From the sequence record NC_101837.1: 64,000 nucleotides of DNA. One strand, 5' to 3'. The stretch's first letter is position 1. The number at the start of each line of letters is the position of its first letter. Made by a program: the position numbers and the translations under genes. Under the pieces are notes generated by a model. It did not search any database, was not told the DNA's origin, and was given only the letters and a program-made list of their open reading frames with translations. Source of the stretch: a phage. Below, piece after piece: positions 51,719-55,404 of the stretch.

Positions 51719-51997
51719 ATGAGCTGCGAAAAATCTTTTTTCATCATCATTTACGGTAAGGATAACTGCCCACATTGTGTCAGAGCAAAAGAATTTGCAA
51801 TCAGCAAAGGTCTGCCTTTTGTATATAAGACACTTGGCGAGGGCTACACAAAAGAAGAGCTTATTGAGAAGTGTAGTCCAATCGTCCCCAGAACGTTGCC
51901 GCAGATCTTCTTAGAAAGCGATCTTGACAGTGTCCATATAGGCGGTGCAGACGATTTCATCTCTTTTGTTAAGAATGGTTTTGGAGAGAAAAAGTGA
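51719..51997 (+). CDS. glutaredoxin/NrdH-like redoxin
   Basis: 92 aa; CPHC active-site motif (YGKDNCPHCVRAKEF). Confidence 0.7.
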   Translation: MSCEKSFFIIIYGKDNCPHCVRAKEFAISKGLPFVYKTLGEGYTKEELIEKCSPIVPRTLPQIFLESDLDSVHIGGADDFISFVKNGFGEKK

Positions 51998-52854
51998 AAG
52001 TTGTAAAACGGGACGGTAGAGAAGAGTTTTATAACGGAATTAAGGTGATCAAGGCGGCAGAGTCCGCCTTACTTGAGTCTGGACATACTGAAGAAGAAGC
52101 TTACCGGATAGCTTGTGCAGTTAATGAAGTTGTTGCTAACAATCTACCAACCGACCAGTGCACGATCTCTGTAAAAAATATCCATATCCTTGTTGAAGAT
52201 GCTCTTATGGATATGGGTTTAAAATGTGCAGCCAGAGAATACATCCAGTATAGACAGACAAGAGATAATAACAGAGAGGCAGGTGGAAAACTGCTTGCAG
52301 ATATTAGTGGCTTCTTGGATCGAACTTGTGATGAATTTACAAAAGAAAACGCAAATAAGCCTACTAATCATGTACACACTCATCGCGACCTGCTTGCAGG
52401 CATCCTTAGCAAACACCTTGCATCAACACAGATCCTGCCAGACCGTGTTTCAGAAGAGCACAATAAAGGCTTCATCCATGTGCATGATCTTGACTACTTG
52501 ATCAGTCCGTTAACAAACTGTTGTTTGGTAAATTATCCAGATATGTTGGAAAACGGATTCAACATTGGCAACGCCCATGTCAGTAAGCCGAAGTCAATAG
52601 GGGTTGCAACAACAATCCTTAGTCAAATCTCTAGCGCGGTAGCTAGTGCTCAATATGGTGGTCAGACTATGAGCCATATTGATCATTATCTGGCACAGTA
52701 TGCTGAAGCAACCTATGAGAAGAACCTTAAATTTTGCCAGGAACATTGGTTGCCGGATGCTGAAACTGTTGCAATGCAAATGACAGATAAAGACGTGTTT
52801 GACAGCATGCAGACGTTGCTTTATCAGATCAACACACTAACCTCGGTAAACGGT
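51994..52854 (+). CDS. nrdD: anaerobic ribonucleoside-triphosphate reductase NrdD, exon 1
   Basis: GTG start; ATP-cone (VVKRDGREEF), conserved class III RNR segments; frame hits stop only because intron begins at 52855. Confidence 0.8.
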
Positions 52855-53111
52855 TAACAAACTGGCCGTTTTAAAACTCTGCTAACCTCAGTATGAGGGG
52901 TCAGCTGATCGCTGGCTAACGGGGAACGCTAAGGCGAAAGCTATGCCAATCCCGTGACTAGCTTCACAAGGAGTGAGGCGGTTGTAACGACTAACCTTTT
53001 GGTGTAGGGATTATGGAAGATTCCGAAACGCAGGGGTCTGATTAAGAATCACACGGTGTGATTTCAGGCAAGAGATAGTCTGGCCTTGTGGAAACATAAG
53101 GGTGGGGACCG
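52855..53111 (+). other. group I self-splicing intron (ORF-less) interrupting nrdD
   Basis: 5' exon ends in U (52854); intron ends in G (53111); internal guide GCCGUU (52865-52870) pairs with exon AACGGU including U.G; P7-like GACUAG/CUAGUC-type elements; NrdD sequence ...NTLTSVNG|QTPFITLS... continuous after removal. Confidence 0.75.
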
Positions 53112-54374
53112 CAAACCCCTTTTATCACATTAAGTTTAGGTTTGGACACTTCGGTCTTTGGTAGAATGATTACCAAAAATTACTTGAAAGTCCACAAAAT
53201 GGGTCTTGGTGAAGAACGTATCACACCTGTGTTCCCTAAAGTGCTGTTCTTCCTGGAAGAGGGTGTCAACATGAACCCTGGGGATCCTAACTATGATTTG
53301 AAACGATTAGCTCTGGAATGCTGTGCAGAACGTATCTATCCTGACTTCGTATCTGTACCACTAAATAGAAAAGTGACAGGCTCGACAGATGGCAAAGTAA
53401 CTAGCATGGGTTGCAGGAGTTTTCTTAGCAAATACAATGACTTGGAAACAGGCGAGGAGAAATACCTTGGCAGATTTAACTTAGGCGTTGTTAGCCTTAA
53501 CCTGCCAATGATTGCGGCAAAAGCTAAGACGGAAGGTGTTGATTTCTTTGCAGTTCTTGACGAATACTTGGATCTTGCATATGAGGCTCACCTTGTAAGG
53601 GTTAACCGTCTAAAAGGAACAAAGGCAGGGCAGAACCCCATCATGTGGTGTGAAGGCGCTCTTGCTCGCCTGGATCCTGAAGAGAGTATTGATAAACTCT
53701 TCTATGACGGGTACGCTTCCATCAGTATTGGGTATATTGGTGTGTATGAAACCTGTCAGATTTTGGGCAGAGAGGGTGACAAGGCTTTAGCTCTTGGAAT
53801 CCTTCAGCACATGAGAGATGCTTGTGAGCGATACAAGAAGGAAAGTAGACTAGCATTTAGCTTGTACGGCACTCCTTCTGAGAGTCTATGCTATAAAGCT
53901 GCAACCTGTCTGGATCGTGAATATCCGGAAGTGTTGAAGCACGAGCATGAATATCTCACCAACAGTTTCCATCAGCCAGTGTGGATAAATAGCTCTCCTT
54001 TTGATAAGTGGGAGTATGAGGAAGGTTTTGCTATGATCTCCTCTGGTGGCAACATTGGATACGTAGAGACACCTAACCTGAAAAACAACCTGGATGCTTT
54101 AGAGGCTCTTGTTGACTTCGGGTATAAACATATTATGTATTTTGGTATTAACCAACCTGTGGATAAATGTCTCAAGTGTGGTTTCTCTGGTGAGTTCAGT
54201 GCAACAGCTAAAGGGTTCTGCTGCCCTGCGTGCGGATGCCACGATGAACAATATATCTCAGTGATCCGAAGAGTGTCTGGATATCTTTCCAGTCCTAACT
54301 CCCGTCCTTACAATAAAGGTAAGCAAGCGGAAGTTATCGAGCGAGTTAAGCACTACGGAAGTTGTGGTTGCTGA
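53112..54374 (+). CDS. nrdD: anaerobic ribonucleoside-triphosphate reductase NrdD, exon 2
   Basis: Frame open from 53100; ITPVFPK...EEGVN..., C-terminal zinc-ribbon CLKCG...CPACG and glycyl-radical region. Confidence 0.8.
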   Translation, partial: QTPFITLSLGLDTSVFGRMITKNYLKVHKMGLGEERITPVFPKVLFFLEEGVNMNPGDPNYDLKRLALECCAERIYPDFVSVPLNRKVTGSTDGKVTSMGCRSFLSKYNDLETGEEKYLGRFNLGVVSLNLPMIAAKAKTEGVDFFAVLDEYLDLAYEAHLVRVNRLKGTKAGQNPIMWCEGALARLDPEESIDKLFYDGYASISIGYIGVYETCQILGREGDKALALGILQHMRDACERYKKESRLAFSLYGTPSESLCYKAATCLDREYPEVLKHEHEYLTNSFHQPVWINSSPFDKWEYEEGFAMISSGGNIGYVETPNLKNNLDALEALVDFGYKHIMYFGINQPVDKCLKCGFSGEFSATAKGFCCPACGCHDEQYISVIRRVSGYLSSPNSRPYNKGKQAEVIERVKHYGSCGC

Positions 54375-54438
54375 TACTTGACAAAAGCCACAAGGATGTG
54401 GCACTATACAGATGTTTAGGGAAGTTAGGAAACAAGAA

Positions 54439-55404
54439 ATGGCTAAATTATCAACAGAAGAGTTTATAGAGAAGGCGAAAATCATTCACGGTTATAAATA
54501 CGATTACACGAAAACAGTGTACGTGGATTGCTATGCGAAGGTTTGCATTACCTGCCAAATCCATGGGGATTTTATGCAAGCACCTTGTAAACACTTGCAA
54601 GGTCGTGGTTGTCCTTTTTGTGCAAAACTTTCTCGTGCTGCAAAGTGTAATAAAGGTCTTAAATTTGTAGAAAGGGCCAAAGAAATCCATGGAGATAAAT
54701 ATGACTACTCTCTCGTATACTACAAGACTTGCAAAGACAGGGTAGAAATAATCTGCAACACTTGTGGAAATCACTTTACACAGACACCTGATAACCATAT
54801 AAATTTGAAAAGAGGTTGTCCAGTTTGCAAGGGGTCAAGAATCTCACAAAGTAAAACATCACCACACGAAAAGTGGGTTGAGTCCATAAGAAGTAGAAAT
54901 CCTTATGTTGAGATATTGGAAGAAATTATTGGGTGGGATAAGAAAGTCCTGTGCTGCTGTAAAGGTTGTAGCCACACATGGTTAACCGTACCAAGCAGTC
55001 TTAAGCAGGGACATGCTTGCCCTAGATGCGCTAAAACAGGATTTTTATCACACGATAACGGAAAACTCTACATTATGGTTGATGATCCAGAAGTACCTAC
55101 ATTTATGAAAATAGGGGTCAGTCATAATGAAAGTAAGCGAAGAGACCAGATACTTAAAAGTGCACAAAGATCTAGAGCTGGTATCCGCGATCTTCACATA
55201 GTGAAAACGTTGGAAGGATCAACTGAAAACATGCTGGCTGTAGAAAAATCTATGCACAAAGCCTTCAGTAAATATAAAATAAACTTCCCTGTAAAATTTG
55301 ATGGTAGTACCGAATTCTTTAACTACAGACCTGAAGTGTTCAGTATGGTAGAATCAGCGCACAGAGAGATTTGTTGTAAACATAGGACAGGTAATAACCT
55401 GTAG
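54439..55404 (+). CDS. GIY-YIG-superfamily (T5orf172-like) nuclease with N-terminal zinc-finger repeats; putative free-standing homing endonuclease
   Basis: C-terminal GKLYIMVDDPEVPTFMKIGVSHNESKRRDQIL resembles T5orf172/MUG113 motif; N-terminal repeated IHGxKYDY...CxxC...GCPxC units; start at ATG 54439 (AGGA RBS). Confidence 0.55.
   Translation: MAKLSTEEFIEKAKIIHGYKYDYTKTVYVDCYAKVCITCQIHGDFMQAPCKHLQGRGCPFCAKLSRAAKCNKGLKFVERAKEIHGDKYDYSLVYYKTCKDRVEIICNTCGNHFTQTPDNHINLKRGCPVCKGSRISQSKTSPHEKWVESIRSRNPYVEILEEIIGWDKKVLCCCKGCSHTWLTVPSSLKQGHACPRCAKTGFLSHDNGKLYIMVDDPEVPTFMKIGVSHNESKRRDQILKSAQRSRAGIRDLHIVKTLEGSTENMLAVEKSMHKAFSKYKINFPVKFDGSTEFFNYRPEVFSMVESAHREICCKHRTGNNL

Follow-up and report, generated by a model that had tools for sequence, protein, structure and literature searches.

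Ever since T4, phage genes for ribonucleotide reductase have been known to harbor self-splicing introns; in T4 itself, nrdD carries a 1033-nt intron with a GIY-YIG ORF (I-TevII). In the Vequintavirus phages of the BASEL records (HeinrichReichert MZ501073, AlexBoehm, and RudolfGeigy) nrdD contains an intron that is 99.6% identical to the one described here and occupies the same site. These records present nrdD as a two-piece join, so that the intron is implied by the join only. The junction of HeinrichReichert (3361 joined to 3619) yields a predicted protein identical to the GenBank joined coding sequences QXV79969.1, QXV75731.1, and QXV84261.1. The BASEL authors state in general terms that intron boundaries were defined by comparative genomics and report no splicing test (PMC8594841), the rV5 paper describes introns in the terminase gene only (PMC3606486), and in the related Vequintavirinae phage CB7 HNH introns in other genes are spliced in vivo as judged by RT-PCR (PMC7344957). 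A literature search for an rV5 or FV3 nrdD intron returned nothing relevant, and no splicing experiment on the intron studied here was found.

Here we analyze positions 52855..53111 of a 64,000-nt stretch of DNA from an rV5-like coliphage (Vequintavirus), a stretch that we refer to as the window. We consider it very likely that this segment is an IA2-like group I intron that restores nrdD by ordinary guanosine-initiated self-splicing. The nrdD intron is already known at the level of annotation, and because sister genomes already annotate the exact junction and the category is a classic one, we regard the finding as an ordinary one.

A 257-nt insertion in nrdD and its exact junction

The nrdD gene of the window lies directly downstream of nrdAB and has its best match in phage HeinrichReichert (98.4% identity). 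(The window also contains a cluster of five tRNA genes at 27583..28392 on the minus strand, one of them scoring 29.9 bits and having a long variable arm; such a cluster is ordinary for rV5-like phages.) Two ORFs on the plus strand, 51994..52857 and 53142..54374, are the N- and C-terminal parts of one class III NrdD. The upstream ORF comprises an ATP-cone followed by positions 1-154 of the NRDD Pfam domain, and the downstream ORF comprises NRDD positions 156-562 followed by Gly_radical. Deletion of 52855..53111 (257 nt) results in a continuous frame of 707 codons with the junction ...NTLTSVNG^QTPFITLSLG... (a caret marks the splice junction throughout). Spliced at 52854^52855 and 53111^53112, the protein aligns gaplessly with T4 NrdD (1h78: ..SSNGQTPFVTITFG..), and the alignment across the junction is also gapless with a second solved NrdD, 9d3x. 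An earlier note, made from the letters of the window, had assigned both ORFs to one protein family, had proposed this deletion and this junction, and had matched the junction to a conserved segment of T4 NrdD; each of these proposals is borne out. Alternative 3' splice sites after G53100, G53102, and G53105 were rejected, as they would add two to four residues found in no NrdD.

In most public records, including the BASEL ones, nrdD is annotated as starting 71 codons downstream of the GTG at 51994. The additional upstream part (51994..52206) has an ATP-cone match of 4.4e-14 and aligns with a solved NrdD from residue 1, and the 707-aa form is the one annotated in phage nimi. The shorter annotated starts are probably wrong.

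Comparison of alleles at the insertion site places the junction to the nucleotide. In all seven of the intron-less Vequintavirus alleles that were fetched, the exact insertion point reads AACGGG^CAAAC, and the target in intron-less nimi-type nrdD is ...GTCAACGGGCAAACTCC.... In seven of seven intron-bearing alleles AACGGT is followed by the intron, placing a U at position -1. Over the 18 nt that precede the site, FV3 differs from the intron-less alleles solely by this G-to-T change at -1; through the synonymous change from GGG to GGT the exon gains the U required at a group I 5' splice site. Exon 1 of the window ends in U52854, the intron ends in G53111 (omega-G), and the introns of relatives also end in G. 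The internal guide at intron positions 11-16 (GCCGUU) pairs with exon AACGGU, with a U52854.G52865 wobble at the 5' splice site. The terminal U and G, the guide 10 nt into the intron with its wobble pair, and the ORF-less length of 257 nt had all been read correctly in the earlier note.

Fold of the intron and its covariation

The covariance-model search that the earlier note had suggested as a check gave a result that depends on the threshold. At the gathering threshold (50 bits) RF00028 had no match in the window, whereas a permissive local search with the same model returned a full-length match at 52845..53101 with 29.3 bits (E = 1.6e-5). RF00028 assigns 105 bits to the proven T4 nrdD intron, which served as a control. 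The difference between 105 and 29 bits argues that the general model fits the family of the nrdD intron poorly, and we therefore built an explicit structural model that comprises P1, P3, two hairpins, P4-P6, P7, P7.1/P7.2, P8, and P9 (Table 1).

Table 1. Coordinates in the window of the nrdD exons, the intron, and the elements of the modelled fold (intron position 1 = window 52855)
Feature	Position	Strand	Remarks
nrdD exon 1	51994..52854	+	GTG start; 287 codons; ATP-cone and N-terminal NRDD; ends ...AAC GGU
Group I intron	52855..53111	+	257 nt; no ORF; in-frame UAA first, omega-G 53111 last
nrdD exon 2	53112..54374	+	420 codons and stop; begins CAA ACC CCU (QTP); remaining NRDD domain, glycyl-radical domain, C-terminal Zn-Cys motifs
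P1	52849..52870	+	exon AACGGU and intron UA (52849..52856) with guide UGGCCGUU (52863..52870)
P3 5' strand CUCUGC	52877..52882	+	intron 23-28; partner 53030..53035
Two hairpins	52886..52914	+	intron 32-44 and 48-60; between P3 5' strand and J3/4-P4
P4-P5-P5a-P6-P6a domain	52919..52982	+	intron 65-128; GAAA loop on P5a; P4 invariant in the family
P7 5' strand A(C)GACUA	52987..52993	+	intron 133-139; bulged C52988; inside R element GUUGUAACGACUAA
P7.1 and P7.2	52994..53024	+	intron 140-149 and 153-170
P3 3' strand GCAGGG	53030..53035	+	intron 176-181
P8 hairpin	53036..53069	+	intron 182-215; loop holds an HNH endonuclease ORF in sister phages
J8/7 AAGAGA and P7 3' strand UAGUCU (S element)	53070..53081	+	
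P9 hairpin CCUUGUG-GAAA-CAUAAGG	53084..53101	+	intron 230-247
Possible hairpin GGGG/CCCC	53104..53119	+	53104..53107 with 53116..53119; 3' splice site in 8-nt loop

All 76 modelled pairs are canonical, and unconstrained minimum free energy folding recovers 68 of the 70 that are not part of the pseudoknot. The fold has a z-score of -4.15, with none of 200 shuffles as stable. Among near-identical copies of the intron there are few SNPs in stems, and the pair is preserved in every case. Covariation was assessed in nine full-length family sequences from different genes: standard pairs fill 95.0% of pair cells, compared with 36-42% after sliding of the partners, and 51 of the 76 pairs have changed in a compensatory manner, compared with 7-13 in the slid controls. 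No shuffle out of 500 attained these counts, which are biased towards the model because the alignment was fitted to its structure; the helices can, however, also be recognized in the raw sequences of the relatives. In P1, six of the eight pairs covary with the host exon, and P3 is 100% paired, with compensatory changes in four of its six pairs (CUCUGC/GCAGGG, CACGGU/GCCGUG, CGUGGU/GCCACG, UGUGGU/GCCACA, CUGUGU/GUACAG, and UCGGGU/GCCCGA). The P3-P8 and P4-P6 domains and the P3/P7 pseudoknot characteristic of group I introns are all present and supported by covariation. The claim of the earlier note that the segment is a group I intron in nrdD is thus upheld by the thermodynamics of the fold, by covariation in relatives, and by the identity of the predicted proteins to GenBank joined coding sequences.

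With respect to P7, one of the two strands named in the earlier note survived. The UAGUC at 53076..53080 is the 3' side (which occupies intron positions 222-227), but its partner is GACUAA at 52989..52994 rather than the proposed GACUAG, a string of the P6 region (52956..52961) that relatives do not conserve. We place the 5' strand at 52987..52993 because the conserved R element is located there. In alignments with the RF00028 consensus and with T4, both the bulged P7, A(C)GACUA with UAGUCU, and J8/7, AAGAGA, agree with expectation, the consensus for J8/7 being AAGAUAUAGUC. In the model, G52989-C53080 is expected to be the guanosine-binding pair. P7.1 and P7.2 are peripheral helices typical of subgroup IA.

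Two other pairings were discarded. The RF00028 alignment puts the 5' strand of P3 at intron positions 56-63, beside P4; the HNH-type allele described below and all relatives instead pair 23-28 with 176-181, with compensatory changes. An extra 3-bp helix between GGC (60-62) and GUC (182-184) would use bases of P8, to which 182-187 belong, and the pairing is absent in the relative L014. P10 amounts to 2 bp only in the window intron. The possible hairpin around the 3' splice site is GGAG/CUCC in HNH-type alleles, which constitutes one compensatory change, and relatives that reside in other genes do not share it; because there are two haplotypes only, this support is weak. The pairing may be a coincidence or may serve in local control of splicing or translation.

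Relatives of the intron and sister alleles

A core-motif scan of viral contigs identified 24 loci, and the same scan of bacterial genomes identified 3 metagenome-assembled contigs only. Relatives reside in capsid-like and peptidase-like genes, in another nrdD, and in dnaE of Bacillus phage S4-2. With a covariance model built from window-type copies of the intron, ORF-less relatives score 46-105 bits and the T4 nrdD intron 31.5 bits. The ORF-less relatives (IMG/VR L011, L014, L016, L023, L025, and L030, and S4-2 dnaE) have the architecture of the window intron and share its core motifs (GCUAACGGGGAA...CCAAUCCCGU, ACGACUA, and GAAGAUAUAGUC), but they occupy other genes or sites, their P1 is fitted to each host exon, and their variable helices differ in sequence. 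A family member in the T4-like contig L029 occupies the identical nrdD site (TTNG^QQPF).

As in subgroup IA2, P7.1/P7.2 lie between the 5' strand of P7 and the 3' strand of P3. The intron departs from that subgroup in having no P2, the gap between P1 and P3 being 6 nt, and in having two covariation-supported hairpins that separate the 5' strand of P3 from GCUAA (J3/4)-P4. As modelled, the nrdD intron is IA2-like without P2. Neither P3.1/P3.2 as named elements nor a P2-less layout with two hairpins was found in the searchable literature, and we simply record this layout and do not claim it to be novel. That the window intron belongs to a formally undescribed, phage-borne structural subclass of IA introns strikes us as unlikely; were it so, the position of the family below the curated Rfam threshold would mean that standard annotation misses it systematically.

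Roughly two thirds of about 120 public Vequintavirus nrdD genes have no insert, while 13 records have the ORF-less intron and 29 an HNH form. Identity among the 13 ORF-less copies is 99.2% or higher but only 95-98% among their exons, a pattern that would fit either recent spread or strong constraint. The HNH form (FV3, EmilHeitz, FFH2, and slur16; 797-798 nt) is inserted at the same site as the window intron, is about 87% identical to it over the 141 nt from P1 to the 5' half of P7, and has J8/7, P7, and P9 in common with it. It differs in having a 177-aa HNH endonuclease ORF in the loop of P8, where the window intron has no ORF; its P8 (GCUCUA...UAGAGU) overlaps the AUG and the stop codon of that ORF. 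The sequences of P7.1 and P8 also differ between the two forms, as does P3 (CUCUCC/GGAGAG in the HNH form versus CUCUGC/GCAGGG), which argues that the ORF-less form is a sibling lineage rather than a fresh deletion. (The motif GAAAGGCAGAG was tried as the 3' region of P3 in the HNH-type intron and rejected, the true 3' strand being GGAGAG, just before the start of the ORF.)

Several other records bear on intron occupancy of nrdD. Phage V18 (KY683736; L004, 1640..1660 and downstream) has exon flanks of the intron type that are 97-98% identical to those of the window and has no intron. Its junction, AACGGT^AACCCC, is two bases (CA) short, there are more small indels in exon 2, and the gene, which is unannotated in its record, is apparently frameshifted; either the intron was lost imprecisely and the gene then decayed, or the assembly is poor. 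In phage phi92 (FR775895) the NG^Q site is unoccupied even though the Gly codon there is GGT, and the phi92 nrdD is annotated as a 'spliced variant' in a two-piece join, which places an intron elsewhere in the gene. A second site, SMG^CRSFLS, lies directly before the Cys of the MGCRSF motif, which we take to be the active-site cysteine of NrdD. In 241Ecol014PP (L003, ~3919..4670) an intron with an HNH ORF occupies it, L023 is at the same site, and L029 appears to use it as well, since its exon-2 frame departs from NrdD at PMG^. The window-type covariance model also gives a group I-like match of 28 bits at 2277..2501 of L013, downstream of the first intron. Counting the T4 site, NG^Q, and SMG^C, intron sites in phage nrdD number at least three. 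(Note that about 19 records labelled 'Campylobacter phage', MG0656xx, host C. jejuni, are >90% identical to coliphage rV5-like nrdD; their host label looks doubtful.)

Probable splicing and mobility, and comparison with T4

From this anatomy we infer that splicing would take the ordinary group I course. The nrdD gene would be transcribed as a single precursor in which the intron adopts the P1-P9 fold, including the P3/P7 pseudoknot. Free guanosine bound in P7 would then attack after U52854, the U of the P1 U.G pair, and the 3'-OH of exon 1 would attack after the terminal G53111, joining the exons into a mature mRNA for the 707-aa NrdD. On unspliced RNA, the in-frame UAA formed by the first three bases of the intron would stop ribosomes.

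If instead the insert were never spliced, NrdD could consist of two assembling polypeptides, as reported for NrdA of Aeromonas phage Aeh1, which is split by mobE. Both halves of nrdD are indeed intact ORFs, and unspliced precedents are discussed in PMC7344957. However, the junction offers no start codon; the earliest candidate is the TTG at 53142, from which translation would drop the conserved QTPFITLSLG. The ribozyme core held by the insert is also complete and has the support of covariation, and a U at -1, relevant only to splicing, is strictly linked to the presence of the intron. With no start at the junction, a conserved segment lost, and the -1 U tied to the intron, a true split gene is extremely improbable.

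The insert could also be a degenerate relic that no longer splices, in which case nrdD would be a pseudogene and the class I enzyme encoded by nrdAB, just upstream, would suffice. The intron has no endonuclease and a weak P10, and the nrdD of V18 looks frameshifted. Moreover, nrdD is not required in aerobic culture, where a dead intron could be carried for a while. Against this, P3, P4, P7, and J8/7 are intact, the stem SNPs among the copies all preserve pairs, and the exons are open and conserved in each of the records read directly (the window, HeinrichReichert, 241Ecol014PP, CM1, EmilHeitz, and FV3). Given an intact core and two open exons in the intron-bearing records that were read, we judge a dead relic to be very improbable, and we favor a self-splicing group I intron.

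As to mobility, such an intron would probably be maintained through vertical inheritance together with recombination during mixed infection; a weaker possibility is that it is mobilized in trans by the endonuclease-like gene downstream of nrdD. This gene (54412..55404, plus strand, 330 aa) starts 37 nt after nrdD, and its product has treble-clef zinc-finger repeats (DUF4379) together with T5orf172/MUG113 and matches the PHROG 681 'endonuclease' (8.5e-55). The gene resembles a mobile, free-standing endonuclease gene. Phage WalterGehring alone has a copy of 98.6% identity, which is annotated as a 'putative homing endonuclease', and Mangalyan has one of 91%; partly related genes, alike in the 3' half only (~78% identity), are also found in the intron-less phages naam, A142, and D1. 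The BASEL records of HeinrichReichert, AlexBoehm, and RudolfGeigy lack this gene after nrdD; HeinrichReichert has the intron without it.

The finding is chiefly of practical value. In many rV5-like GenBank records nrdD is listed as two or three genes. With the junction confirmed, these are correctable, the records of CM1, bov10K2, SophiaRose, navn, and 241Ecol014PP among others. There is also a gap in detection, in that the general group I model of Rfam misses the family of the window intron at its curated cut-off. The Vequintavirus nrdD locus, at which nearly identical genomes have no intron, an ORF-less one, or one with an HNH ORF, is a convenient natural system for the study of homing, co-conversion, and intron loss.

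The T4 nrdD (sunY) intron, a member of subgroup IA2, shares with the window intron the host gene, the conserved region in which it is inserted, and the order P7-P7.1-AGUA-P7.2-GAAA-P3'-P8-J8/7-P7'. The parallel that the earlier note drew with T4 held as far as the T4 intron has an endonuclease ORF and the window intron has none; it did not extend to the position of the insertion. The T4 intron splits QAYE^YEV, 11 codons (33 nt) upstream of NG^Q, and we therefore rejected the T4 site as that of the window intron, which, being 33 nt off and without an ORF, is not the mobile nrdD/I-TevII intron of T4. The T4 intron has a normal P2 and a P3 that directly abuts J3/4, whereas the window intron has neither.
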